From Nitrosopumilus ureiphilus (GTDB taxonomy: Archaea > Thermoproteota > Nitrososphaeria > Nitrososphaerales > Nitrosopumilaceae), in NCBI RefSeq assembly GCF_013407185.1, contig NZ_CP026995.1, forward strand, positions 591,578-623,577: a stretch of 32,000 bases of DNA. The letters are read 5' to 3'. The position numbers were made by a program, and so were the translations under genes. This document shows positions 2,305 to 26,726 of the stretch, one piece after another. The notes beneath the pieces were generated by a model. That model did not search any database. It saw only the letters and a list, made by a program, of their open reading frames with translations, and had not been told where the DNA came from. Position 1 is the first letter of the stretch, and every line of letters starts with the position of its first letter.

Positions 2305-3297
2305 TCATCTATTTGCCTCCCTTAGTCTACGAACCGAAAGTACAAAAATTGGACTTGCTATTAGTATTGCTAACAAAACTGTGAAAAAATTCTTAAAAAT
2401 CTGTACATCATTATGGCCATGTTCGTGCTCATCCATCTCAAATTCCGCTGGAATTGGAGTAATTTCAATCAAAGTATTCCACCCTTGATGGATGAATGTT
2501 TCCTCGTACCATTCATGACCCTCCGGAAGTCCATTAATGATCAAAAATGCACCTATAACTATCAGCATCCAACCAGATGCTCTCTCAATTGATTCTCGTT
2601 TAACTGTAAGACTTTTTGTTGCGTTAATTCCAATCACTGCAAGTACTGACATCAAAATCAATGGAATTGCTCTTCCAACCCCATGAACTACTCCTAATGA
2701 AGCACCTACTTCGATACTACCAGTACCAGCAATGTAAATGAGAAGCCAGTAAAATAAAGGATTAGGACATCCAACTCCTGCATTCCCTAACAGCAAACCC
2801 ATGAAAAATGATTTTGTGTATTCACCTCGCTTTTGTATAAATTTAGGAGTGCCTGAATATGATGGTAGTCTTAGAGATATAATTTTTAATTGTGATAATC
2901 CAAAAATAAAAGCAGCAATTCCTGCAATCAAAAACATGATGGTGGATGCTTGATCTAATGATGCGCTTTGCCCGATAGCTGCTATTGCTATACCATAAGA
3001 CGCAATAGTTATGGTTAATCCCAAACCAAAAAGTAAAGCCATGGACAATCCTTTCTTGTAACCTTTACCCATACTCAATGGAACAATAATGAAAACAAGT
3101 GGTAACGTACATGGTAAAACTATCATGGACAATCCCGCTACATATGCAATTACAATCCACGAAAGATATGTTGTGTGTTCTTTTCCGTCAATTGTAAAAT
3201 TTGTTCCAAACGAAAATACAATTCCAAGAAAAATTAATGAAAATAAAGCAAATGAAATAATCACCATGGATTTTTTTGCTAGTACAATTGTTGACAT
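2305..3297 (-). CDS. ccdA: CcdA/DsbD-family transmembrane thiol-disulfide electron transporter with His-rich tail
   Basis: Multi-TM protein with the two family Cys motifs (LPCTLPLV and GVGCPNPLF). C-terminal EMDEHEHGHND segment followed by one more TM. Confidence 0.85.
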   Translation of the reverse strand: MSTIVLAKKSMVIISFALFSLIFLGIVFSFGTNFTIDGKEHTTYLSWIVIAYVAGLSMIVLPCTLPLVFIIVPLSMGKGYKKGLSMALLFGLGLTITIASYGIAIAAIGQSASLDQASTIMFLIAGIAAFIFGLSQLKIISLRLPSYSGTPKFIQKRGEYTKSFFMGLLLGNAGVGCPNPLFYWLLIYIAGTGSIEVGASLGVVHGVGRAIPLILMSVLAVIGINATKSLTVKRESIERASGWMLIVIGAFLIINGLPEGHEWYEETFIHQGWNTLIEITPIPAEFEMDEHEHGHNDVQIFKNFFTVLLAILIASPIFVLSVRRLREANR

Positions 3298-3386: not shown

Positions 3387-4052
3387 TCATAGCATGGATT
3401 CAATTATTTTTTCAAATACTGAATATGGCTGTGGTCCAACAACTGTCTCTTGGAAGCCATCTGGACCTACAATGAAAAACGTAGGGGTGCCAGTAACTCC
3501 ATTATTTTGTGCCTCAGATGTGTTAAATTGTACACGTTTTTGGTATTTTGCAGAATCTAGGCAACTCACAAACATATCCATGTTTAATCCTAGATTGTAT
3601 GCATATCCCTTTAGGCTGTCTGAATTTGCCCAACCATTATCAATTGATAACTGATTTGAATACAAGAATCCGTGATAGTCCCAATATTTTCCTTGCTCTT
3701 CTGCGCAATAACTTGCAATTGATGCAGGTATGGAATCTTTTCCTAGGAATGCAATATCTACAAAAATTAGTTTAGCTTTTCCGGTCTCTATGTAATTGGT
3801 TACAATATCAGGTTTTGTATTTAGAAACCATTTTTTACAGTTTGGACATTGATAGTCTCCAAACTCAATTATTGTGATTGGTGCATTTGAAGACCCCCTG
3901 ATTGGAGAACCCAGTGAGGTGTCAATAGTACCGATTTTTCTATTCATATCAAGATTAATGTCTTCAGAATTTGTAGGAATTTGATAAAATAAAACAAGTA
4001 TCACCAATACAAGACCTATGCTAGATGCATAGATGATATGTTTAGGTTTCAA
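3387..4052 (-). CDS. DsbA-like thiol:disulfide oxidoreductase, membrane-anchored or secreted
   Basis: N-terminal TM followed by a thioredoxin-fold CxxC (FGDYQCPNCKKW). TTG start preceded by GGAGAGGG. Confidence 0.87.
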   Translation of the reverse strand: MKPKHIIYASSIGLVLVILVLFYQIPTNSEDINLDMNRKIGTIDTSLGSPIRGSSNAPITIIEFGDYQCPNCKKWFLNTKPDIVTNYIETGKAKLIFVDIAFLGKDSIPASIASYCAEEQGKYWDYHGFLYSNQLSIDNGWANSDSLKGYAYNLGLNMDMFVSCLDSAKYQKRVQFNTSEAQNNGVTGTPTFFIVGPDGFQETVVGPQPYSVFEKIIESML

Positions 4053-4134: not shown

Positions 4135-4596
4135 TTAGAATCTACTTAGCTCAACAATGATTTTTCCTTTCATCCATGGGTGAGGTTCACAGTGATAAGG
4201 TACCTCTTGAGGCTCAGTAAACAGAAACTCGTAGGAATCCCCCGGTTTTATGACGCCAATAGAACCAAAATCTCCACTGTAACTATCCGTTGTTCTGTGA
4301 TCAGGAGTTACCGTATGCGCAGCATCATCATTGTTTTGCCAAATTACTTTATTATTAATCCCCAACAGTACATTGGATGTGTTTGGAACATAGTTTTCAT
4401 TTCCTTCAATTACCGCACCGGGAACAATTTCAATTGTAAATTCTTCTTCAGGATTTAAGATATATTCAGCTACAGAGGGTTTTGCTAAAGATTCAGGAAG
4501 ATAAAATGATGTGTAAAAAACTACAGATGCAGACATGCCAATGATTACTGCAATAACTCCTATGCCATATGCATGACTCGATGATGGAGAGCTCAA
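4135..4596 (-). CDS. plastocyanin/cupredoxin-like blue copper protein, N-terminally anchored
   Basis: Type-1 Cu ligand pattern H...C-x2-H-x2-M (AAHTVTPD ... YHCEPHPWMKGKIIV). N-terminal TM. Confidence 0.88.
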   Translation of the reverse strand: MSSPSSSHAYGIGVIAVIIGMSASVVFYTSFYLPESLAKPSVAEYILNPEEEFTIEIVPGAVIEGNENYVPNTSNVLLGINNKVIWQNNDDAAHTVTPDHRTTDSYSGDFGSIGVIKPGDSYEFLFTEPQEVPYHCEPHPWMKGKIIVELSRF

Positions 4597-4659: not shown

Positions 4660-5337
4660 CTAAGAACGCTTCTTAGTTAGAAACAACACTCCGACTATTA
4701 TTCCAACACCTGCTGCTATGTAAAATGGAAACAGTGCAAACACATTCTTTGCAGGATCGCCTGAAAGAATTTCTATAGTCATGCTCCCAGAGTTAACTGC
4801 CGGAGGATCAGTGGAGCCCTCCATCCCATGTACTGAATACGAATCAATTGCAAACGTGCCAATATCCAAATTGGTAACTACAATTCTTGCCCCATTATTC
4901 ACGGTAAGTCCTGCCCTGTCAGTAAATGATACGATGGACTTGGCTTGCGGATACCAGCCCCTGTCCGGAGCACTGTGAACTACGACGTATCCTTCTTTTG
5001 GAGTTTGGACTGCAACCCAAAACTTGTTGTCAGGCTGAGGTCCCATGCCAACTTCGACAAATTCATCGTGAGTCTCCTCATCATATATTCTGAGAACTGC
5101 GTTTCCGTTTGGATTTGCATATAGCAGATTGTTATCAATTGTCACCTGCCAGCTAACGGCATGAACGTCATCAAGGGATACTATTGGCGCATCTCGCAAG
5201 ACTCTGTTGAACTCATCTGCAGGAATCTCTATTGTATCAATGAGCAGTGACGGGTTTTTTACTTCTTGGGCAAATGCGGGAGTGATGAAAAGTCCTAAAA
5301 ACAATACTGCAAACAGATACTTCACAAGCAGAAACAA
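4660..5337 (-). CDS. secreted protein with C-terminal TM anchor, function unknown
   Basis: Signal peptide ending PAFAQ. C-terminal hydrophobic helix plus KKRS tail. Visibly higher GC than the neighbouring genes. Confidence 0.6.
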   Translation of the reverse strand: MFLLVKYLFAVLFLGLFITPAFAQEVKNPSLLIDTIEIPADEFNRVLRDAPIVSLDDVHAVSWQVTIDNNLLYANPNGNAVLRIYDEETHDEFVEVGMGPQPDNKFWVAVQTPKEGYVVVHSAPDRGWYPQAKSIVSFTDRAGLTVNNGARIVVTNLDIGTFAIDSYSVHGMEGSTDPPAVNSGSMTIEILSGDPAKNVFALFPFYIAAGVGIIVGVLFLTKKRS

Positions 5338-5726: not shown

Positions 5727-5740
5727 TTTACATTTGTAAA
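5727..5740. promoter_or_regulatory. palindromic operator-like site TTTACATTTGTAAA (perfect)
   Basis: 9-nt gap, then TTTAATAA (5750-5757). The ATG of the Met-rich protein is 43 nt from the motif edge. Extended symmetry ...TGTAAAGTAC. Confidence 0.75.
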
Positions 5741-5782
5741 GTACTTGTTTTTAATAACTAAAAATAGATAGTAAATATAGAA

Positions 5783-6496
5783 ATGGTGAACCAATCTGCA
5801 TGGATAGGAATTGCTATTGGGGTCTTTTTTGTGGGGCTTGTCATTGGATTTGGGATTTTTACAGGTACCATGAATATTGGAAATATGCCAATCCAAAACC
5901 AACAAGCAATGATGCAAGATCCACAATTTCAACAACAAATGATGAATCAATTACTAAATGATCCTGAAACCAGAAATCAAATGATGGACACTATGACACA
6001 AGATCCATCTGCCATGAGATCATGGATGGAAAATACTCAACATGTAGAGGAAATGGCCACTATAATGAGAGAGAATCATGATTTTGCTATGAGGATGATG
6101 TATACAATGATTGAAGACTCTGCTTTACGATTGCAGATGATAGGTCATATGACAGAAAATCCTGAGGCGATGCAACAAATGATGAATATGATGAATTCAG
6201 GTATGGCAAATCAGAGTATGATGGATTCTGGAATGATGATGGGCAATATGTCAGGAGGAATGATGAATTCAGGTATGATGAATCAAGACATGATGATGCA
6301 AATAATGCAAGATCCTGAAACAAGAGAAAAAATGATTCAGATAATGTCTAAACATGTATCTGAAATGCAAGAATTACTTTCTTCAGAATTACCTGATGGT
6401 GAGTTTAACACACAGATGACAGAATTGATGCAGAATCACATGAAAGAAATGCAAGTTCTAATGCCAAATCAACCAATGCATCAATCCATGAAGTAG
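5783..6496 (+). CDS. membrane-anchored, extremely Met/Gln-rich protein (candidate Cu(I)-binding)
   Basis: N-terminal TM. By hand count about 50 Met in 237 aa, in runs such as MMDSGMMMGNMSGGMMNSGMMNQDMMMQIMQ. Repeated DPETR-x-(Q/K)M motif. The exact 18-nt repeat atgatgaattcaggtatg occurs at 6188 and 6260. Confidence 0.75.
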   Translation: MVNQSAWIGIAIGVFFVGLVIGFGIFTGTMNIGNMPIQNQQAMMQDPQFQQQMMNQLLNDPETRNQMMDTMTQDPSAMRSWMENTQHVEEMATIMRENHDFAMRMMYTMIEDSALRLQMIGHMTENPEAMQQMMNMMNSGMANQSMMDSGMMMGNMSGGMMNSGMMNQDMMMQIMQDPETREKMIQIMSKHVSEMQELLSSELPDGEFNTQMTELMQNHMKEMQVLMPNQPMHQSMK

Positions 6497-6509: not shown

Positions 6510-7193
6510 ATGAAGAATAGTAGAAAAACAATTTTAATTGTAATTCCTATTGGAATCTTGATTGCAATGTTTCTATCCTCATTCTTATTTCAACATTTTA
6601 TTTCAGTTCAATCTGGAAACGAACTTGATAAAGTTTCAACAAACACATCTTTTGATACGTTGTCTTCTTTTAATTCGCCCGTAATTGGTTTCTCTGATGC
6701 ACCTGTAACAATTATCGTTTTTAATGACTATCAATGCTTATCCTGTAAAACATGGTATGAAAATTCCTATGAAGATATTTCAAAAAAATTAATTGAAACG
6801 AAAAAAGCAAAAATAATATTTTTAGATTCAGAACCTGTAGGAAATGATTCTATTTTGATATCACAAGCAACATTTTGTGCGGATGAACAGGGAAAATATT
6901 CAGAATATCAAGAAGTATTGTTTTCCTCACAACAAAAAATTGATGGATGGGCAAAATCGGTTCAATTGAAGAATTTTGCAATGGATTTGAATCTGAATGT
7001 GGCGTCATTTGAGAGATGTTTAGACTCTGGAAAATATGAAAAAGATGTAATAACAAATATAGATTATGCAAAAAGTATCGGAGTAGAAAAAATTCCAATT
7101 TTCAAAATTGTTAATTTTGAAGGAAAAGAACACGTTCTCAAAGGAGGCATTTCAAGTACAGTTTTTGAAAATATTGTGGAACAATTTCAATAA
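6510..7193 (+). CDS. DsbA-like thiol:disulfide oxidoreductase
   Basis: N-terminal TM and CxxC (FNDYQCLSCKTW). Starts 13 nt after the Met-rich ORF, so probably the same operon. Confidence 0.85.
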   Translation: MKNSRKTILIVIPIGILIAMFLSSFLFQHFISVQSGNELDKVSTNTSFDTLSSFNSPVIGFSDAPVTIIVFNDYQCLSCKTWYENSYEDISKKLIETKKAKIIFLDSEPVGNDSILISQATFCADEQGKYSEYQEVLFSSQQKIDGWAKSVQLKNFAMDLNLNVASFERCLDSGKYEKDVITNIDYAKSIGVEKIPIFKIVNFEGKEHVLKGGISSTVFENIVEQFQ

Positions 7194-7902: not shown

Positions 7903-9282
7903 TTATGACCTTTTTGTAATCCATTCGGTAACTCTCGGCCATAATTCTTCATGTGCTTTTTTACTAATGCATAAGCCTACATGTCCTGTTGGATATTCTA
8001 TTAGTTCTTTATCTGTACTAGGAATGTGACACATAACATATTTGCTAGAATCTGATGGGACCAAATCATCATTTTGTCCAACTATGTTTAAAACAGGCAT
8101 AGTTAGTTTGTTAAGATCAACAAATTTTCCACCCACTTTCATCTTGTTATGGATTAGTTGATTTTTTTGGTAGATTTTTTTGATAATCTCTTTGTATACT
8201 TTGCCTGTAATCGGTCTACTATCATACAACCACATTTCAATTGCCATAAACTGTTGAATCTCATCTAAAGAACGTGGTTTTTTGAAATAGTTTGGATATT
8301 TTAGAACTGATTCCAAGGGATTTCTCATTATAAATGCAAAATTCAAAAGTTGTCCTGGAACATTTCCTAATTTTTCTATCATAATATCTAGATTGATTTG
8401 TTTTGTCCATTTTTCAATTACTGTGTCTGGCTTTTCCAAATCAAGCGGTGTTGCATGTAAGACGAGATTTTTTACCGTTTCTGGATGCATTGTAGTATAA
8501 ATAAGTGAAAGAATTCCTCCCCAACAATACCCAAACAACGTTATTTTCTTAAAACCTGTAATTTCTTGAATTTTTTTAACAGAGTTTTCTACATATTCAT
8601 GAATGTATTTTTCAAGAGTCATATCTTTATCAAAAGTAGTGGGTGTTTCCCAATCTGTTGCATATACGTCAAATCCTTTATTGATAAAATGTTGCACAAC
8701 ACTGATTTTAGGTAGCAAATCAAGGATGTAATGCCTGTTTATCAATGAATAAACAATAAGAATTGGGGTCTTGTTTGACTTTTTAGATTTGTAGTGAAGT
8801 AAATGATACTGTCCATTCATCTCTATTGATTCAGAGTCTGTTCTGTTTAGATTGTCCCGTATGGGTTCAAGTATTTTGTTAAGGAGAAAAAATTGTTCAG
8901 TATATTTTTGATACAACTCACCAATTCCAAAAAACTTTGACAATGTAAACCAAGAGTCAATGGTTTTTGAAAAGGAATTCACAAAATCATCTTTTTTTAT
9001 TCCTTTCCGGAACTCTTGATCAAAAGTCTTCCTCATTTTTGATTGTGAATTGTTGGATAAAAAATTACTTAATGTAATGTTATTTTCATACAAAGTTTTT
9101 GAAACTGAATCCGATAAAATGATATTGTATTTAATAAATAATTGGTTTTGATTCAGGACATAATCTATGTATGAAGATGAAAATTCACGTAATGTATCAT
9201 AATTATAATTATTCATTTTATGTTTATTTTTTTGCCATATCCAATGCAATCTTGAACGCATGGTTGGAGTACTTGGAACCAT
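7903..9282 (-). CDS. alpha/beta-hydrolase, class III PHA synthase (PhaC)-like
   Basis: G-x-C-x-G lipase-type box (FGYCWGG) and C-terminal His (PTGHVG). The start is probably an internal Met (MNNYNYD, about 9216). Confidence 0.65.
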   Translation of the reverse strand: MVPSTPTMRSRLHWIWQKNKHKMNNYNYDTLREFSSSYIDYVLNQNQLFIKYNIILSDSVSKTLYENNITLSNFLSNNSQSKMRKTFDQEFRKGIKKDDFVNSFSKTIDSWFTLSKFFGIGELYQKYTEQFFLLNKILEPIRDNLNRTDSESIEMNGQYHLLHYKSKKSNKTPILIVYSLINRHYILDLLPKISVVQHFINKGFDVYATDWETPTTFDKDMTLEKYIHEYVENSVKKIQEITGFKKITLFGYCWGGILSLIYTTMHPETVKNLVLHATPLDLEKPDTVIEKWTKQINLDIMIEKLGNVPGQLLNFAFIMRNPLESVLKYPNYFKKPRSLDEIQQFMAIEMWLYDSRPITGKVYKEIIKKIYQKNQLIHNKMKVGGKFVDLNKLTMPVLNIVGQNDDLVPSDSSKYVMCHIPSTDKELIEYPTGHVGLCISKKAHEELWPRVTEWITKRS

Positions 9283-9502: not shown

Positions 9503-11668
9503 ATGGCAAAAGATCCTGTTTGCGGCATGATTGTAAATGAAAAAACAGGAATATCTTCTGAATTTGGTGGTAGAAAATTCTACTTTTGTAGTCCTGTTTG
9601 CCAGAAAACATTCACAGAACCTGAAAAAGAGCTTTCACGAATGAAGAAGCGAATCTATGTGGCTACTTCAGGAGCTTTGGCCCTTGCAATAATTCGTGGA
9701 GCTCTGTATCTTGGTGTTGCAGCTGGTGCAATCACAGTTACATGGGTTCCTTTTCCAGAAATACCGTTTCTCTCATATGGCTTGCTTCTTTTCATAATTG
9801 TGACTCCAGTACAATTCATTGGAGGGTGGACGTTCTATGTTGGAGGGTACCATGCAATTATTAGAAGAACTGCAAACATGGACTTGCTAATTTCAATTGG
9901 AACACTCACTGCATATATCTACAGTACCATAGTTCTTTTCTTTCCTGATGCAATTCCAGGCGAAGAAAAGTTCGTCTATTTTGAGGTATCTGCTGTAATT
10001 ATTGCCTTTGTTCTTTTGGGAAAATACATGGAAGAGGCAATAAAAAAGAAAAGTTCATCTGCTGTAAGAAAATTACTTGACTTGAGTCCACCAATGGCAT
10101 GTGTGATTCGTGAGGGCTCAGAAATGGAAATTCCTTCTAATCAGATCAAGATGGATGATGTGATGATCGTAAAACCTGGTGAAAAAATTCCAACTGATGG
10201 AATTATCATTACAGGTGAATCCTCTATAGATGAAAAAATGATTACAGGTGAAAGCCTCCCTGTTGGAAAAAAGCCGGGTGATCAAGTTATTGGGGCTACT
10301 GTTAACAAACAAGGATTGCTTCATATCAAAGCAACCAAAATAGGAAAAGATACTGCATTATCTCAAATTGTTCATGTAGTAGAGCAAGCACAGTCTTCTA
10401 CTGCTAAAGTACAAAGGATGGCTGATTCTATTGCTGCGAAATTTGTTCCTTCTGTGGTAGGAGCAGCCGTCATAACATTTCTACTTTGGTATTTTGTTAT
10501 AGGTGATTTTGTTGCAGGCTTGCTTGCATTTGTTGCAGTTATGATTATTGCATGCCCTTGCGCACTTGGGGTAGCTACGCCTGCTGCATTAATGGTTGGA
10601 GTTGGAAAGGGTGCCGAATCAGGAATTCTAATCAGAGGCGCAGAATACTTGGAACGCTCACAAAAAATCAACACAATCGTATTTGACAAAACAGGCACCA
10701 TAACAAAAGGAGAGCCAGAGGTTACAGACATAGTGTCTTTGAATGAACTAAGTGAAAAACAAATTATTGAATATGGTGGAACAGTAGAATCGGGTTCTGA
10801 ACATCCTATCGCTAAAGCTGTTGTGAATAAAATGAAAGAAATGAATATTCCTCTTACTACTCCTGAAGAATTTGAATCATTAAACGGATTGGGGGTGAAA
10901 GCTATGGTTCATGGGAAAAAAATCTATACTGGAAACAGGAAAATGATGAAACAGTTTGGCATTGATGTTCGTCTTGCTGAACAAAACATGGAAAGACTAG
11001 AGTCAGAAGGAAAGACAGCAATAATGGTGATAATTGATGATAAAATAGAGGGCATCATTGCAGTTGCAGATTCATTAAAGGAAACCTCTCAAATGGCAAT
11101 TTTTGCACTTACTGATCTTGGGATAGAGTCAATTATGATTACAGGTGACAATGAAAAAACAGCACAAGCAATAGCAAAAAAAGTTGGTATTGAGAAAATC
11201 ATTGCAAATGTTTTACCCGCAGATAAAGCCAAAGAGATCAAGAAACTACAAGCACAAGGAAAATTTGTTGCAATGGTGGGTGATGGAATTAATGATGCCC
11301 CCGCTTTAGCACAAGCTGATATAGGGATTGCAATTGGTAGTGGTTCTGACATTGCAAAGGAAACAGGAGGAATAATTCTGATCAGAGATGATCTAATGGA
11401 TGTTTCTCGTGCAATTCGATTGAGCAGAGCAACCATGAAGAAAATCAAACAAAATCTTTTCTGGGCATTTGCATACAACTCTGGCGGAATTCCAATTGCA
11501 GCTCTAGGTCTACTTAGTCCAATCTTTGCAGCTGCTGCTATGGCTCTAAGTTCAATTTCAGTCATTGCAAATTCTTCTATGCTTAAGCGATACAATATTA
11601 CAAGTGGAGAAGAAAAATTAATGAAATCTGAGATGTTTCAAAAACAAAAACTTGAGGCTATGAGATAA
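9503..11668 (+). CDS. copA: copper-translocating P1B-type ATPase with N-terminal TRASH/YHS-type domain
   Basis: TGES, CPC (IACPCALG), DKTGT and GDGINDAP motifs. N-terminus DPVCGMIV...[12 protein letters not shown] replaces a GMxCxxC HMA domain. Confidence 0.96.
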
Positions 11669-15538: not shown

Positions 15539-16573
15539 ATGCTTGCAACAAAGTTTAGAAAATTTTCAATGTATTTTGTATTTTCTAGTTATATCGTTAT
15601 CTTATTTGCTATAGGTAACGTACTGGATGCTGATGCTGAAGAATTTACTATTGGCATTCCCTTTGGTGCTTTTAATCCCGAATTAAACACTCCTGCAGTG
15701 GTTTGGTATAATCCACCAATACTATCAATTCAGACCGGGGATACCGTAACTTGGATTAATGATGATCGAGAGGGACATACTGTAACTAGTGGTGAGGGTT
15801 CAGGAAGATTTGAATGGATGGATGCCAAAGATCTTGGTAAGCCTGATGGATTATTTGATAGTGAAAGATTCATGCCAAATGAGTCTTGGTCATATACTTT
15901 TGAAAAAGAAGGTATCTTCAATTATTTTTGTGTAATTCACCCATGGATGAGCGGAACTGTAATTGTAAAACAAATAATACCTGATTTTCCTCATGATGCG
16001 GCAGGAAATAAAATAGAAACATTTCCAATAATACAATATACTCCTGATAAATTAATAGAGTTTGATATTACATGGGAGCCAAATGTTATCAAAACATTTG
16101 AAAAAACTAAATTCATTTATCAGACATATGATGCCATGACAAACTCAAATCTAGACAAGATGCAATATGACCTAATCATAACTCAAAATGGAAAAAAAGT
16201 ATTCCAAGATTCTGGGGTAACCCAAGTTGGTGGGGATTATAGAAATGTCATCTTTGAGACATCAGGTCCGATAGAAATCATGTTTCAAAATATCGTGAGC
16301 AGTGGCTCTTCTGGCATATCTAGTGCTGCAAGGGCACCTGTTGATCAACCAATATTTCGTACAGTTGTATTTACCACAATAGTATATGACAATTCAGAAA
16401 AAACTACTTCGTCTGAAACTGTTGTGCAGCCTGCACAGAGACTAGATATCTATTACGAACTTTTAGTTGCCATAATACTAGTTCCTGCATTAATGCTGCT
16501 TGGAATAGTTTTATACATGAAATTTAAAAAACATGAAATTTCTTCACAGGAAACACATTCAACACCAATCTGA
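15539..16573 (+). CDS. cupredoxin-domain protein with extra C-terminal domain and TM anchor
   Basis: EGHTVTSG ... YFCVIHPWMSGTVIV (H, C, H, M ligands). Signal or TM at the N-terminus and a C-terminal TM. Confidence 0.85.
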   Translation: MLATKFRKFSMYFVFSSYIVILFAIGNVLDADAEEFTIGIPFGAFNPELNTPAVVWYNPPILSIQTGDTVTWINDDREGHTVTSGEGSGRFEWMDAKDLGKPDGLFDSERFMPNESWSYTFEKEGIFNYFCVIHPWMSGTVIVKQIIPDFPHDAAGNKIETFPIIQYTPDKLIEFDITWEPNVIKTFEKTKFIYQTYDAMTNSNLDKMQYDLIITQNGKKVFQDSGVTQVGGDYRNVIFETSGPIEIMFQNIVSSGSSGISSAARAPVDQPIFRTVVFTTIVYDNSEKTTSSETVVQPAQRLDIYYELLVAIILVPALMLLGIVLYMKFKKHEISSQETHSTPI

Positions 16574-16892: not shown

Positions 16893-17234
16893 TCATTTTT
16901 TTGTAATCTTGTTTTTGGAAAATGAAATTGAGGGCTCAAATTTTGTAATGCTGATTTTGGCATCTTTGATTAAACTCTGATAAAATGTTGCAATATGTCC
17001 TGATTCTGTAAAATCTGTTTTTTCTGTAATTAAGGAGCATTCTTTGAGACTTTGGATTTGTTTGTATACTGAGCTGAGTGGAATTTTCAATTCTTTAGAA
17101 ATATCTAGAACTGTTTTTGGTTCTTTAATTATTGAAAATAAAATGTATCTTGATTCTAAATGTATAAGTTCATTGAACATTTTATGAGAAATATCGTATT
17201 TTTCTACTAGTGATGGTTTGAGTTTTGCTGCCAA
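16893..17234 (-). CDS. ArsR-like winged-helix transcription regulator
   Basis: ILFSIIKEPKTVLDISKELKIPLSSVYKQIQSLKE is a typical wHTH. The start is uncertain: TTG at 17234, or the internal MFNEL. Confidence 0.6.
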   Translation of the reverse strand: MAAKLKPSLVEKYDISHKMFNELIHLESRYILFSIIKEPKTVLDISKELKIPLSSVYKQIQSLKECSLITEKTDFTESGHIATFYQSLIKDAKISITKFEPSISFSKNKITKK

Positions 17235-20357: not shown

Positions 20358-21056
20358 TTATTTTTGTTTAATATGGTTATTCTTTGATTTTACAATTTTT
20401 ACATATGATACAATTTGTAAAACTATGACTATGATACTCATTACAATAAATGGAATTGTGAATGTGCTTTGTGGAGGGACCGATTTGTGAAATGATTCTG
20501 TATAATGCATAAAAAGAAAGTATGCTGTATGGATTGCAACAAGATAAAACACAATGTTTGAACCTGTATGTAGCCACTTCCAAGATGATGCTCCTAACCA
20601 TTTCATGGCCTTGTCTGATGAGGTTAATGCAAGAATTGCAATCCACAAGATTGCTACAAAACCTATCACGTTTGCCAATCCGAACCCTGGCTCCATTCTA
20701 GCAATTCTATCTAATTGTGGAACAAACTCATAACCCAAGAACTTGAGAACATCCCAATTTGCCCATCCATTCACAATTAAGATTCCATGAATTGATGCCA
20801 TAATTGCAAACCATATGCCCGTTTCTCTTCTCCATGAAAGCAAAGAATTCAAACGTGGCCACAATTTACTTAATGGTCCAATTATTAATACCACAAAAAG
20901 TAATGAATAGCCAACATCACCAAATGCACGCCATAATCGCATTTCATCATCCCATTCATAATGTGAAACCCAAAAAATAAACATTAGAAAAATAGCAATA
21001 ATTCCAACCAGTATATGTCGCCTAACAAAATTATTTTTTATTTTAATTTTGTTCAT
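20358..21056 (-). CDS. ferric-reductase-like / MsrQ(YedZ)-like haem-binding membrane protein
   Basis: Six-TM-type profile with conserved-looking His residues in the TMs (MASIHGILIV, VAIHTAYFLFMH). Confidence 0.5.
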   Translation of the reverse strand: MNKIKIKNNFVRRHILVGIIAIFLMFIFWVSHYEWDDEMRLWRAFGDVGYSLLFVVLIIGPLSKLWPRLNSLLSWRRETGIWFAIMASIHGILIVNGWANWDVLKFLGYEFVPQLDRIARMEPGFGLANVIGFVAILWIAILALTSSDKAMKWLGASSWKWLHTGSNIVFYLVAIHTAYFLFMHYTESFHKSVPPQSTFTIPFIVMSIIVIVLQIVSYVKIVKSKNNHIKQK

Positions 21057-22620: not shown

Positions 22621-23157
22621 ATGCAGAAAGATGGATGGCTTCTTACAATCATTATTGCAGTTCTTGTTTTAGGATCTTTACAAATTGGAATTATGTATGA
22701 CTGTTCATTACAAGGAAAAAATTTTAGCTTTTTTGATTGTATTGAAATTATTGAAGAGCCATCATATGTTCAGGATATTGCAACATTATCAATACAATCA
22801 GATAACTCTGTAATTTTAATAAATGTGGAAATTGCAGATGAACTTCAAAAACAAATCAATGGGTTGATGTTTAGACAAAATCTGGATTGGGATTCAGGTA
22901 TGTTGTTCGTGTATGATAGTGAAAAGAAACGATCATTTTGGATGAAGAATACATTGATTTCCTTAGATATGTTGTTTATAGATGAAGACTTTAGAATAAT
23001 CGACATAAAAGAAAATGTACCTCCATGTATAATTGAATCATGTCCAAATTATACTTCTAACATGCCTGCAAAATACGTCTTAGAAGTCAATGGTGGATTT
23101 ACCATGACAAATAATATTGAAATTGGAGATTTGGTAACATGGCATTCTAAAATATAA
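22621..23157 (+). CDS. DUF192 (COG1430)-family protein, exported
   Basis: N-terminal TM. GLMFR...GMLFV...FWMKNTLISLDMLFID pattern typical of DUF192. Confidence 0.8.
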   Translation: MQKDGWLLTIIIAVLVLGSLQIGIMYDCSLQGKNFSFFDCIEIIEEPSYVQDIATLSIQSDNSVILINVEIADELQKQINGLMFRQNLDWDSGMLFVYDSEKKRSFWMKNTLISLDMLFIDEDFRIIDIKENVPPCIIESCPNYTSNMPAKYVLEVNGGFTMTNNIEIGDLVTWHSKI

Positions 23158-23174
23158 AAAAATATACAAGCAAT

Positions 23175-24020
23175 TTATTTTTCCACAGGATTTCCTATCA
23201 TGTTACCCCATTCAGTCCAAGAACCATCATAGTTTCGAACCTGGGGATATCCAAGTAGATATTTTAGGACAAACCAACTGTGAGAAGATCTTTCTCCAAT
23301 TCGGCAATAACAGATTACATCTTTGTCTGGAGTTACACCTTTTGGCTCATAGTTTTGTCGTAGTTCTTCAACTGCTTTGAAGGTTCCATCAGCGTCATTG
23401 ACTGCAGTTGCCCATGGAATATTATTTGCGCCCGGAATATGCCCGCCTCTTTGTGCATGCTCCATCGGATATTCTGGCGGAGCAGTGATTTGACCAGTAA
23501 ACTCTGCAGGCGATCTAACATCAACCATTACAGTGTCTTCTTTGTCTAATGCTCTGCTTACATCAAACAAGTATGCACGTAATCCCTCATCTGGAGGTTG
23601 TGCAACATATGTTGTTGATGGTAATTGTGGTTCATCAGTAGTGTAATCTCTACTTTCTAATTCCCATTTCTTTCGTCCACCATTCATTATTTTGAGATTC
23701 TCATGACCATAGATTTTGAAAACCCAGAAAACAAATGCTGCAAACCAGTTGTTAAAGTCACCATAAAGAATCACTTCAGTGTCAGCAGTAATTCCGTTTT
23801 TAGCCATTAAAGCCTCAAATTGTTTTTTGCTAATGATGTCTCTTGTAACTGGATCATTAATGTCACGTTTCCACCAAATCAGAGTTGCGTCATTAATGTG
23901 ACCTTTTTGATATCCATTAACTGGATCATAATCAACTTCAACTATTTTTCTATGTTCATTTGGGGGATTTTGTGATACCCATTCAGTATCAACTAAAACT
24001 TCAGGATGTGCGTAACTCAT
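23175..24020 (-). CDS. tandem-rhodanese thiosulfate sulfurtransferase
   Basis: Two rhodanese-like halves. Active-site loop CYCRIGERSS in the C-terminal half. Confidence 0.88.
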   Translation of the reverse strand: MSYAHPEVLVDTEWVSQNPPNEHRKIVEVDYDPVNGYQKGHINDATLIWWKRDINDPVTRDIISKKQFEALMAKNGITADTEVILYGDFNNWFAAFVFWVFKIYGHENLKIMNGGRKKWELESRDYTTDEPQLPSTTYVAQPPDEGLRAYLFDVSRALDKEDTVMVDVRSPAEFTGQITAPPEYPMEHAQRGGHIPGANNIPWATAVNDADGTFKAVEELRQNYEPKGVTPDKDVICYCRIGERSSHSWFVLKYLLGYPQVRNYDGSWTEWGNMIGNPVEK

Positions 24021-24164: not shown

Positions 24165-24809
24165 TTGAAAACATCCATTGTGATAATTTTATTGATAGTT
24201 GCCGGATTTGTAACATATGGTGTTTTTTTCACTCAACCTTATACTTCAGAAATCGTAATTAGTAAAAATTTTGGAACCATCACAACATCATTAGGTTCTC
24301 CATTTTTAGGCTCATCTCAAGCACCTATCACAATAATTGAATTTGGAAATTATCCATGTATTGAGTGTCAAACATGGTTTCAGGAAACTAGGCCTGATAT
24401 AATCAGGGATTATATCAATCAGGGAGAAATCAATATGATCTTTATTGATACACAACTTACAAAAGACATTCCACTTGCATCTTTTGCTTCATACTGTGCT
24501 AATGATCAGAAAAAATACTGGGATTATCATGACGCATTATTTCGTAATGTGCTAGAAAATAAAATAGATGTTAATCACCTAAAACAATATGCTGTGGAAC
24601 TTGGATTGGATATGAAGTTATTTGAAGAATGTCTAGACACTAAAAAATATGAAAAGAAGATAAAATACAGCATATATGAGGCAAAGAAGAATGGGATTAA
24701 TAGACTTCCAACATTCATAATAATGGATTCCAGTGGAAAATATGAAAAAATTTTGGGAGCACAGCCATATTCTATTTTTAAAGAAAAAATAAGATCTATG
24801 CAGGATTAA
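24165..24809 (+). CDS. DsbA-like thiol:disulfide oxidoreductase
   Basis: N-terminal TM and CxxC (FGNYPCIECQTW). TTG start in the track. Clear paralog of 3387-4052. Confidence 0.85.
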   Translation: MKTSIVIILLIVAGFVTYGVFFTQPYTSEIVISKNFGTITTSLGSPFLGSSQAPITIIEFGNYPCIECQTWFQETRPDIIRDYINQGEINMIFIDTQLTKDIPLASFASYCANDQKKYWDYHDALFRNVLENKIDVNHLKQYAVELGLDMKLFEECLDTKKYEKKIKYSIYEAKKNGINRLPTFIIMDSSGKYEKILGAQPYSIFKEKIRSMQD

Positions 24810-25862: not shown

Positions 25863-26726
25863 ATGATGTGTGTGAGGACATTAGCTTCAATCTTATTGCT
25901 TTTTACAATAATTTCTGTTATCAGTATTTTTCCATCTGCTTTTGCACAAGTCAGCATTACAACAGGGCCTGGTAATTTGAGTACTCCTGGATGTGAGGAA
26001 ACAAATGAATGCTACACTCCAAGTGAACTAATAGTACCTGTTGGTGAAAAAATAATAATGACCAACATTGACACTACAGGAATACACACATTTACTTCTG
26101 GAACCGTAGATGGTTTTTCTCCTAGCTCTGATGGAAAGTTTGATTCTGGAATATTAAACGCAGATCAATCCTTTGAATTTTCTGCAGATGCTGCAGGTGA
26201 ATATCCATACTACTGTATGTTACATACTTGGATGCAAGGTACAATTACAGTACAAGAAGCTATGGCTGAACCTGTACTTCAAATGGCAACTATAGTACAA
26301 CCTGATGAAATGATGGCAGAAATTATTGCTAGTGATGGAGTTGCAAATGAGGCGATGACAATTGATCTTATTATTACCGATCTTGAAGGTAATGGCGTAG
26401 AACACATTACATACAATATCCAGGCAACTCAAGGTTCTGAAATTTTACTAAATGAAGAGGGTCATATGCACAAGGGCACGATTACTAATAATCATGTGAC
26501 TTCTACTTTACCTGTAGATGCGTCAGATGACATGCCTGTTGTAATTAGCGTTGAATCTGTAGGATTTGGACACGATGAACAATATGTGGATTTTTCAAGT
26601 GAGATAACCACAAAACAAGTAGTTCCAGAATTTGGTACCATAGTAATGATGATTCTCGTAGTTGCAATAGTTAGTATGGTTGCAGTAACTACAAAGTCTA
26701 AACTCAGCATCATGCCAAGAATTTAG
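25863..26726 (+). CDS. cupredoxin-domain protein with PEFG-CTERM sorting signal
   Basis: GIHTFTSG ... YYCMLHTWMQGTITV (H, C, H, M ligands). C-terminal VPEFG followed by a hydrophobic helix and a basic tail. Confidence 0.88.
   Translation: MMCVRTLASILLLFTIISVISIFPSAFAQVSITTGPGNLSTPGCEETNECYTPSELIVPVGEKIIMTNIDTTGIHTFTSGTVDGFSPSSDGKFDSGILNADQSFEFSADAAGEYPYYCMLHTWMQGTITVQEAMAEPVLQMATIVQPDEMMAEIIASDGVANEAMTIDLIITDLEGNGVEHITYNIQATQGSEILLNEEGHMHKGTITNNHVTSTLPVDASDDMPVVISVESVGFGHDEQYVDFSSEITTKQVVPEFGTIVMMILVVAIVSMVAVTTKSKLSIMPRI

Follow-up and report, generated by a model that had tools for sequence, protein, structure and literature searches.

In the ammonia-oxidizing archaeon Nitrosopumilus ureiphilus, a 32,000-nucleotide (nt) stretch of contig NZ_CP026995.1 (positions 591,578 to 623,577 of the forward strand; hereafter the window, numbered from its first letter) carries at 5783-6496 a gene for a methionine-rich protein of 237 amino acids (aa). 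The product contains 50 Met, that is 21.1% of its residues, the number that a sequence-only reading of the same DNA had estimated by hand, together with 27 Gln, 19 Asn, 6 His and no Cys. The mean Met share of the 29 ATG-initiated open reading frames (ORFs) of at least 100 aa in the window, which has a GC content of 32.6%, is 3.7%. The second-highest ORF reaches 8.9% but lies antisense within copA, and the highest share in any other plausible gene of the window is 5.6%. No paralogue of the Met-rich protein was detected within the window by tblastn. Since homologues are found at the amino-acid level at 40-76% identity, the ORF is really coding; it is more than low-complexity sequence and represents a real, conserved gene. 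The features of the gene and of its immediate flanks are as follows (AF2, AlphaFold2; pLDDT, its per-residue confidence score).

5727-5740, no strand: candidate CopR-type box, the perfect palindrome TTTACAttTGTAAA in a 6+2+6 layout, centred 50 nt before the ATG of the Met-rich gene
5748-5757, + strand: TATA-like box TTTTTAATAA by direct reading, 8 nt 3′ of the palindrome and about 26 nt before the ATG
5783-6496, + strand: Met-rich protein gene, from ORF and composition (237 aa, 50 Met, 0 Cys)
5792-5860, + strand: N-terminal transmembrane signal-anchor helix (aa 4-26), an AF2 helix in which F15 and G18 are at least 90% conserved
5888-6001, + strand: variable DP/NP-capped Met/Gln helical repeats (aa 36-73), here with a borderline GerD Pfam match
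6002-6202, + strand: conserved His/Met core (aa 74-140), about 65 aa, delimited by column conservation
6188-6205, + strand: first copy of an 18-nt in-frame repeat, ATGATGAATTCAGGTATG, encoding MMNSGM
6203-6283, + strand: disordered Met/Gly/Ser/Asn linker (aa 141-167), with AF2 pLDDT below 50 at aa 144-165
6260-6277, + strand: second copy of the 18-nt repeat (MMNSGM), identical to the first
6284-6493, + strand: C-terminal helical hairpin module (aa 168-237); AF2 places its two helices at aa 178-200 and 205-226, with pLDDT of about 80
6510-7193, + strand: DsbA-like thioredoxin-fold gene with a CLSC motif (PF13462, Thioredoxin_4, E=4e-19), 13 nt past the stop codon of the Met-rich gene

The conserved core and the modular family

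Conservation was assessed in an alignment of 32 full-length orthologues (A1) and in one of 121 relatives (A2), the columns of the core comprising about 116-121 sequences with an overall identity of only 36-76%. Three histidines stand out in these columns, with H87 and H99 kept in 116 of 116 sequences each and H122 in 118 of 120. A comparison of homologues for conserved Met positions, whose absence the sequence-only reading had named as grounds for refutation, returned eight such positions in the core, conserved at 90-100%: M95 (100%), M78 and M91 (98%), M82 (97%), M136 (96%), M123 (94%), M130 (93%) and M103 (90%). Further conserved core residues are W81, N98, F101, D112-P113, R116-L117-Q118, G121, T124-E125 and E128. 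Met columns 43, 68, 71, 105, 109 and 119 exchange freely with Ile, Leu, Val or Phe. The conserved residues form i,i+4 ladders (78/82 and 87/91/95/99/103), and four H-x3-M pairs are found along the protein (H87-M91, H99-M103, H191-M195 and H219-M223), in addition to H233-x2-M236; on the predicted helices, such pairs place their candidate ligands on one helical face. The ectodomain has 74 hydrophobic residues, 49 of them Met, and with Met making up two thirds of the hydrophobic residues of the soluble part, many Met may be structural.

The full-length AF2 model is all-helical (pLDDT 67), and a model of aa 36-140 alone shows eight short helices (pLDDT 83, predicted template-modelling score 0.53). 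The single N-terminal transmembrane helix expected by the sequence-only reading is present in the model, and among 109 homologues its flanks are weakly biased in charge, towards positive before the helix and negative after it, which fits a predicted N-in/C-out topology. The DP/NP repeat region that follows is 7-55 aa long among orthologues, with repeat-unit indels seen in A1. The DPETR motif does recur as had been noticed, once here (DPETRNQM at aa 60) and once beyond the linker (DPETREKM at aa 177). The Met run MMDSGMMMGNMSGGMMNSGMMNQDMMMQIM occupies aa 146-175, and the linker varies through indels between 14 and 46 aa across the 32 orthologues; in the paralogue of locus L026, one of the 50 loci introduced below, it carries MDHGSMSM twice. 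In the C-terminal hairpin, H191, M195 and H219 are at least 90% conserved among the full-length orthologues. Over the orthologues as a whole the Met share ranges from 10 to 22%, with a median of 19%.

The two 18-nt copies in and around the linker had been taken as a sign of recent internal duplication. Their identity is exact, but an exact repeat of at least 18 nt also arises in 0.7% of whole-ORF codon shuffles and in 5.5% of shuffles confined to the Met-rich linker, so that the repeat barely or moderately exceeds what composition would produce. It falls in the segment that is most indel-variable among homologues, and is suggestive of duplication or slippage.

A word-indexed search recovered 137 relatives of the protein, an exhaustive search of representatives 161 among 1.84 billion clusters, and a scan of 185,579 species genomes 50 loci with family members. 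The best relatives are 64-76% identical to the window protein. Nearly all named relatives are from Nitrosopumilaceae, and where the source gives a protein name it is usually 'hypothetical protein', the few exceptions being generic or evidently machine-made labels. Forty-seven of the 50 loci lie on Nitrosopumilaceae-type contigs (Nitrosopumilus, Nitrosarchaeum, Nitrosotenuis), and the other three in bins that are labelled differently, as Planctomycetota (L005), Saprospiraceae (L013) and Nanoarchaeia (L041). Neighbouring genes in these three are 73-90% identical to those of the window (75-88% for HtrA, thioredoxin, DsbD and cupredoxin), and the contigs are probably mis-binned Nitrosopumilaceae. 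A profile search with the trimmed core returned only more short unannotated fragments, the few named ones being 'hypothetical protein' and one of them coming from a metagenome-assembled genome (MAG) of Thermoproteota; no annotated or clearly non-archaeal relative was obtained. We found no description of the family in the literature on methionine-rich proteins in Nitrosopumilus or other ammonia-oxidizing archaea. The family appears confined to Nitrosopumilaceae, occurs in marine and freshwater ammonia-oxidizing archaea and is modular.

The unit made of transmembrane helix, repeats and core occurs in three forms: alone, in proteins of about 140 aa; with the C-terminal hairpin; and ahead of other domains. 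The hairpin is exchanged for other domains in paralogues, a shuffling seen in proteins P0097 and P0013 and in the fusion proteins. Among 120 listed relatives, 11 are fused to a cupredoxin, and the fused cupredoxins show the Cys/His/Met ligands of type-1 copper sites (sequences P0040 and P0013). Other fusions in this set involve DUF7482 (13), SnoaL-like (7), 3D (4) and FN3 (1) domains. Furthermore, in 78 of 257 related proteins, fragments included, the Met/Gln repeats are found without the His core.

The palindromic box and the gene neighbourhood

The sequence-only reading had placed the Met-rich gene behind a perfect operator site. The palindrome at 5727-5740 is indeed perfect, but it is not specific to this gene: the window holds 20 copies of the 14-nt motif TTTACAnnTGTAAA with at most one mismatch, where shuffles lead one to expect 0.46, and these lie at about 17 promoters. 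The sites start at the following positions, 3335 being the dsbD box and 9378 the copA box.

First ten 14-nt sites: 205, 3335, 4115, 4636, 5463, 5727, 7480, 9378, 14170, 14288
Other ten 14-nt sites: 15441, 15484, 18366, 18503, 21160, 21202, 22545, 24058, 26936, 27016

Twenty sites at some 17 promoters suggest a large putative regulon island. At eight window genes the centre of the box lies 36-52 nt before the start codon, and at most of the window promoters examined a TATA-like box follows 8-10 nt 3′ of the palindrome. The genes behind a box include those for HtrA, DsbD, the first DsbA-like protein, the cupredoxin at 4135, the Met-rich protein and a Cys-rich protein, the divergent phaC/copA pair, the cupredoxin at 15539, a pair encoding a rhodanese and the third DsbA-like protein, and others. 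The arrangement extends to related loci. In 12 loci the box immediately precedes the Met-rich gene, and in six more it stands ahead of a pair formed by a small ORF and the Met-rich gene; a position 40-50 nt before the ATG is conserved in 11 orthologous loci. The box is also found upstream of DsbD in 13 of 15 related loci and of CopA in at least 5 of 8. In loci L004 and L006 one box lies 44 and 48 nt from the start codons of the divergent DsbD and Met-rich genes. The family copy of the cultured Nitrosarchaeum sp. LAS73 (L014), by contrast, has no box. Loci syntenic with the window region have 0.4-0.8 boxes per kb, and most other Nitrosopumilaceae loci, at equal GC content, have 0-0.07, a difference that rules out a general promoter element.

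The first gene of the window is the 3′ end of a regulator gene with an AsnC/Lrp-type helix-turn-helix (HTH) and a TRASH domain, as in CopR. The fragment is 86% identical to full-length orthologues of 144-145 aa (HTH_AsnC E=1e-13, plus TRASH), and such orthologues are encoded within a few kb of a Met-rich homologue in nine loci. In seven of nine related loci the box precedes the regulator's own gene. The CopR motif of Pyrococcus furiosus, TTNNCAWWWTGNNAA, which was defined by experiment, lies directly upstream of the B-recognition element and TATA box (PMC7830388), and the window box matches it in half-sites and in position, with a spacer of 2 nt against 3 (PMC7830388). The palindrome also contains TACAnnTGTA, which the title and abstract of PMC7253601 give as the 'cop box' of bacterial CopY; no BlaI/CopY-type regulator was present among the window ORFs scanned. 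The CopR-type Lrp/TRASH regulator, whose own gene lies behind the box, is the simpler candidate, and we infer that it would be the protein that binds TTTACAnnTGTAAA. The motifs linked to copper limitation in Nitrososphaera viennensis differ in sequence from the box (PMC7785015), and we found no description of it in the literature on palindromes or motifs in Nitrosopumilus.

The archaeal cop clusters of Pyrococcus and Sulfolobus share with the window the HTH plus TRASH architecture of the regulator, a P1B-1-type ATPase and, as a candidate in the window, a semi-palindromic box, TTnnCA...TGnnAA, immediately ahead of the promoter core and shared by divergent genes (PMC7830388). They differ in that the putative regulon is far larger here and consists mainly of outward-facing redox and copper proteins; moreover, the described clusters (CopR, CopA, TRASH chaperone) have no counterpart of the Met-rich protein. 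The other genes of the window that matter here are as follows.

3-203, + strand: 3′ end (66 aa) of the CopR-type AsnC/Lrp-HTH plus TRASH regulator gene, cut by the window edge (PF08394, Arc_trans_TRASH, E=2e-8)
from 253, + strand: HtrA
1951-2292, − strand: thioredoxin-like (Trx) protein (PF13192)
2305-3297, − strand: DsbD/CcdA-like membrane protein (PF02683)
3387-4052, − strand: DsbA-like protein
4135-4596, − strand: membrane-anchored plastocyanin-like cupredoxin (PF00127, E=1.4e-7)
4660-5337, − strand: secreted 225-aa protein; signal-like segment at the N terminus, hydrophobic anchor at the C terminus with KKRS as its last residues
7214-7435, − strand: 73-aa Cys-rich protein (CPVC...CPCC), no family match, with its own palindrome
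7903-9282, − strand: PhaC, class-III-like polyhydroxyalkanoate (PHA) synthase (TIGR01836, 330 bits, below the cut-off of 365)
9503-11668, + strand: P1B-1 Cu(I)-exporting ATPase CopA with an N-terminal YHS domain (TIGR01511, 575 bits against a cut-off of 397; YHS E=3.5e-10)
15539-16573, 25863-26726, 24165-24809, 23175-24020, 22621-23157 and 20358-21056: further outward-facing redox and copper genes

CopA carries the signature residues CPC351, YN658 and MALSS680 (MxxSS). The six further genes encode two cupredoxin-domain proteins (one of them at 15539), the third DsbA-like protein, a double-rhodanese protein, a DUF192 protein and a ferric-reductase-type membrane protein (Ferric_reduct, MsrQ-type fold, at 20358-21056), and most of them stand behind the same palindrome. 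By its gene content, the window reads as an island for outward-facing copper handling and thiol redox.

The DsbA-like gene that the sequence-only reading had noted 13 nt downstream of the Met-rich gene is present and co-oriented, and given the 13-nt gap the two are probably co-transcribed. As a conserved partner, however, it is kept in only 2 of the 50 loci (L002 and L005). DsbD with Trx is the immediate divergent upstream neighbour in about 13 of 50 loci; in about 17, DsbD is no more than three genes away. CopA lies next to the Met-rich homologue, or at a distance of one or two genes, in five loci (L012, L032, L037, L046 and L050), and no further than 10 kb from it in three others (L026, L038 and L043). 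A single Nitrosotenuis MAG has two paralogues, each of them beside a CopA (L026 and L032). Cupredoxins are adjacent in six of the 50 loci. The conserved partners are therefore the divergent DsbD/Trx pair and CopA, not DsbA.

Several other genes accompany the family. The gene at 4660-5337, whose product has no Pfam or NCBIfam match, is arranged divergently to the Met-rich gene, with a palindrome 132 nt ahead of it. The 73-aa Cys-rich gene is convergent with the Met-rich/DsbA pair; about eight loci have it beside the Met-rich gene, with identities of 67-75%. The gene phaC lies between the Met-rich gene and copA, with which it shares a palindrome-bearing intergenic region, and PhaC is again near CopA in L026 and L043. 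An ArsR/TrmB-type winged-helix protein of 113 aa is encoded at 16893-17234 (− strand), with no palindrome upstream in the window, and in L009 a homologue of it immediately follows the Met-rich gene. In seven Nitrosotenuis-type loci a small Cys/His ORF of 61-77 aa (CLICG...FCSDDH), with no counterpart in the window, lies about 6 nt upstream of the Met-rich homologue; its match to DUF2116 (treble clef) is just a weak one, and it was therefore not called a TRASH protein. In three of these loci, a DUF7144-like Met-rich membrane protein of 154-159 aa is encoded immediately downstream, and another Met-rich membrane protein, DUF6789-like and of 221 aa, with a Met/Asp/Glu-rich loop, is found beside the family in L032.

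Small Cys/His ORF: L026 9817-9981, L032 3206-3397, L037 6044-6274, L038 9764-9994, L039 234-416, L041 2081-2311, L050 9764-9994
DUF7144-like protein: L026 10494-10973, L050 10489-10953, L039 911-1369
DUF6789-like protein: L032 4805-5470

Likeness to described families

Comparison with Pfam, NCBIfam, PDB profiles and Foldseek gave nothing firm, so that the family belongs demonstrably to no described family, with no matching fold. The sole curated match of the window protein is to the GerD core, PF17898, and just reaches the gathering score (29.6 bits against 29.5). It extends over the variable repeats (aa 40-73) and 33 of 114 model positions, and the NCBIfam GerD equivalog, NF040801, is matched at 29.8, below its cut-off of 100. 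At E up to 10, the GerD Pfam model matches 29 of the 32 orthologues, the best at E=1e-8. Profile comparison with PDB sequences listed, in each case below threshold, GerD itself (4o8w, E=0.006 over 113 residues), the DP1 domain of Sti1 (2llv, E=0.05) and the C-domain of Sgt2 (9llv, E=0.11), and PF17830 (STI1-HOP_DP) matches 10 of 32 orthologues below threshold (best E=0.0073). Neither the full-length nor the core model had a significant fold match in the PDB with Foldseek at E of 0.001 or less. The top match was both times Sti1 DP2 (2llw), which was not significant (E=2.5 and 7.8, TM-score 0.13-0.35), and the five-helix helical-hand fold of STI1/DP was not matched. The GerD structure 4o8w was absent from both Foldseek lists, although a monomer model may miss a trimeric rope.

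Among copper and silver proteins, SilE and PcoE, the periplasmic 'molecular sponges' for Ag(I)/Cu(I) of the enterobacterial sil/pco clusters, offer a close comparison in chemistry. In these proteins, a spacing of i to i+3/i+4 in HxxM/MxxH motifs has been shown to be important for binding of Ag(I) and Cu(I) (PMC5008109), and helical His/Met spacing of this type is present in the Met-rich protein. Both are extracytoplasmic, by prediction in our case, and Cys-free, carry His and Met at i,i+3/i+4 on helices and have partly disordered segments (PMC5008109). In both cases the gene neighbours that of a P-type ATPase and is controlled, here putatively, by a metal-responsive regulator. The differences are as clear, since there is no sequence homology, and the Met-rich protein is membrane-anchored where SilE/PcoE is soluble. 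SilE/PcoE, which binds several Ag(I)/Cu(I) ions, is disordered without metal, whereas AF2 predicts the Met-rich protein to be helical without it. It also has far more Met and fewer His than SilE (6 against 10), and is modular, often fused to other domains, and archaeal.

Met-rich regions that bind Cu(I) are also known as parts of larger proteins, namely the CueO insert, the MDHSxMxGM repeats of CopA/PcoA/CopB, the His/Met region of CopI and the Mets motifs of Ctr1. The fusion paralogues resemble them in having a flexible Met/Gly/Ser/Asp tract beside a cupredoxin domain, and the L026 paralogue in its two MDHGSMSM copies. Unlike in those cases, the tract belongs here to a tethered protein that stands by itself and has a conserved helical core of its own, and the window protein has no multicopper oxidase or transporter domain.

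Proposed copper binding and its alternatives

The reading that we favour, and to which we give about even chances, is that the Met-rich protein is a membrane-tethered, extracytoplasmic binder, relay or buffer of Cu(I), belonging to a CopR-type regulon and acting between CopA and extracytoplasmic copper proteins. It draws on the invariant His/Met positions and on the copper-handling gene neighbourhood. With a type-II anchor in N-in/C-out orientation, the protein would face the space under the S-layer and expose, in this order, the DP-capped repeats, the core of about 65 aa, a floppy Met/Gly/Ser linker and the C-terminal hairpin with its two H-x3-M pairs. The short helices of the core would display i,i+4 stripes of His and Met (M78/M82, H87/M91/M95, H99/M103, H122/M123 and M130/M136), whose imidazole and thioether groups could bind Cu(I) or Ag(I) at several sites. 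Since Met, unlike Cys, makes no disulfides, it would suit an oxidizing compartment. The tethered protein may then take up, at the membrane surface, the Cu(I) extruded by CopA, and the captured copper may be buffered or handed to outward-facing cupredoxins and other copper enzymes. A CopR-type TRASH regulator acting on TTTACAnnTGTAAA upstream of TATA would co-control the Met-rich gene, copA, dsbD, the cupredoxin genes and its own gene.

Indirect support for copper comes from the chemistry-specific conservation of His and Met and the H-x3-M geometry; from the disordered Met-rich linker, the cupredoxin fusions and the complete lack of Cys; and from the context of CopA, CopR-type regulator, DsbD/Trx and cupredoxins together with the CopR-like box. 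The sequence-only reading had proposed an extracellular Cu(I) sponge or chaperone. The His/Met ladder, the fusions, the neighbours and the box point in the direction of copper, but a modular protein with a strict core would be more than a mere sponge.

A number of observations weigh against copper. Metal binding is a prediction, and at E up to 10 no Pfam match to SilE/PcoE, CopM (DUF305), CusF or CopC was obtained with the Met-rich protein, SilE/PcoE being absent also from its NCBIfam matches (E up to 0.01). As Met is the main hydrophobic residue, the invariant Met may serve core packing. The DUF7482, SnoaL-like, 3D and FN3 domains to which the module is fused have no known copper link, and the relatives that keep the Met/Gln repeats without the His core are many. 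In about half of the 50 loci, mostly those of short paralogues, both the box and any recognisable copper neighbour are missing. The box itself precedes genes without an obvious copper role (PRPP synthase, PhaC, a spermidine-synthase-like protein), and its spacer is one nucleotide shorter than in Pyrococcus. Finally, the synteny comes from one archaeal family and is partly inherited, so that the loci are not independent observations.

Some of these observations would fit a different kind of protein, namely a Met-rich helical scaffold, stalk or client binder for which copper is not a ligand. Its DP/NP-capped helices might form an STI1/DP-like 'helical hand' or a GerD-like, rope-like oligomer that holds hydrophobic segments of secreted or membrane proteins, or that spaces the C-terminal domains above the membrane, and it might belong to an envelope protein-folding set with the nearby DsbA-like, DsbD and HtrA genes. 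Hydrophobic helices are bound by STI1 domains, Met-rich helical hands in which helix-breaking prolines are conserved (PMC8010706). Those of Sti1/Hop (DP1-DP2), of the Sgt2/SGTA C-domain and of the ubiquilins share with the Met-rich protein, in which Met is the dominant hydrophobic residue, Met-rich amphipathic, flexible helices with DP/NP caps at the helix starts. Likewise, GerD, a spore-germination lipoprotein, is membrane-tethered, outward-facing and all-helical, with DP-capped repeats. The GerD Pfam core in 29 of 32 orthologues, with the window protein just reaching the gathering score, the weak profile matches to 4o8w, Sti1 DP1, the Sgt2 C-domain and PF17830, and the appearance of Sti1 DP2 at the top of both Foldseek runs, though not significantly, all speak for such a role, as do the joining of the module to many unrelated domains and the many relatives that lack the His core. 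All STI1 matches are below significance, however, and the GerD match is restricted to the variable repeats, leaves the His/Met core uncovered, fails the NCBIfam cut-off and comes without a fold match, in an archaeal host that has no spores. Known STI1 domains are modules of cytosolic eukaryotic co-chaperones (PMC8010706), whereas the Met-rich protein is archaeal, predicted to face outward and equipped with invariant His. Three invariant His and Met columns that refuse Leu and Ile would be unexpected in a purely hydrophobic groove, and the recurrent adjacency to CopA and the TRASH regulator and the cupredoxin fusions are left unexplained. Because of the non-copper fusions and of the weak resemblance to GerD and STI1/DP, we keep a scaffold or client-binding role in view as the main alternative, though an unlikely one. 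If true, an outward-facing client binder of STI1/GerD type would be a new kind of archaeal envelope chaperone.

The sequence-only reading had also offered a sacrificial methionine antioxidant, in which surface Met would scavenge H2O2 or reactive nitrogen from ammonia oxidation and be re-reduced by methionine sulfoxide reductase (Msr) fed by DsbD/Trx. The extreme Met content, the predicted outward-facing location, the divergent DsbD/Trx pair as the most conserved neighbour and the Ferric_reduct gene of MsrQ-type fold would be in line with it. This proposal gained no support: no MsrA, MsrB or MsrP domain is present in the window ORFs of at least 100 aa, a bulk scavenger needs no positional conservation of given Met and of three His, which stay unexplained, and the same holds for the links to CopA, the CopR-type regulator and cupredoxins, so that we regard it as improbable. 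Slightly less probable still is another metallo- or cofactor protein, be it a b-type haem protein with axial His/Met (cytochrome b562-like) or a binder of Cu(II), Zn or Ni, serving as outward-facing electron carrier or buffer of another metal: the helical domain with invariant His and Met, the conserved N98, D112, E125 and E128, which could suit harder metals, and a weak profile match of the C-terminal hairpin to the designed di-haem bundle 9i38 (E=0.0013) are set against a match that reflects generic helix-loop composition (two aligned stretches, E=2 and 12), a core of eight short helices that is no four-helix bundle, and a P1B-1 ATPase neighbourhood that points to Cu(I).

Returning to Cu(I) binding, a bolder extension, which we put forward tentatively and hold to be doubtful, would make the family the missing outward-facing copper chaperone system of ammonia-oxidizing archaea. 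It would pass Cu(I) from CopA to cupredoxins and copper enzymes, in cis when fused and in trans when free, as part of a large CopR-type TTTACAnnTGTAAA regulon that coordinates copper export, thiol redox and cuproprotein assembly, and it would represent a new fold and a methionine-built Cu(I) store or relay.

Ammonia-oxidizing archaea drive much of global nitrification, and for ammonia oxidation and electron transfer they are generally held to use copper proteins, not c-type cytochromes. The ways in which they acquire, buffer and insert copper outside the cytoplasmic membrane are poorly understood. A transcriptome study of Nitrososphaera viennensis implicated CopC/D, DsbD and multicopper oxidases and left the regulation open (PMC7785015). 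The box described here provides a defined 14-bp cis-element for mapping a copper regulon, and the core, a small domain of about 65 aa, is expressible and directly testable. As a Cys-free His/Met copper binder, the Met-rich protein would found a new family with no matching fold that is archaeal, tethered and modular, and the family, lineage-specific and seemingly abundant, is a concrete candidate for the extracytoplasmic copper-handling step of these organisms.

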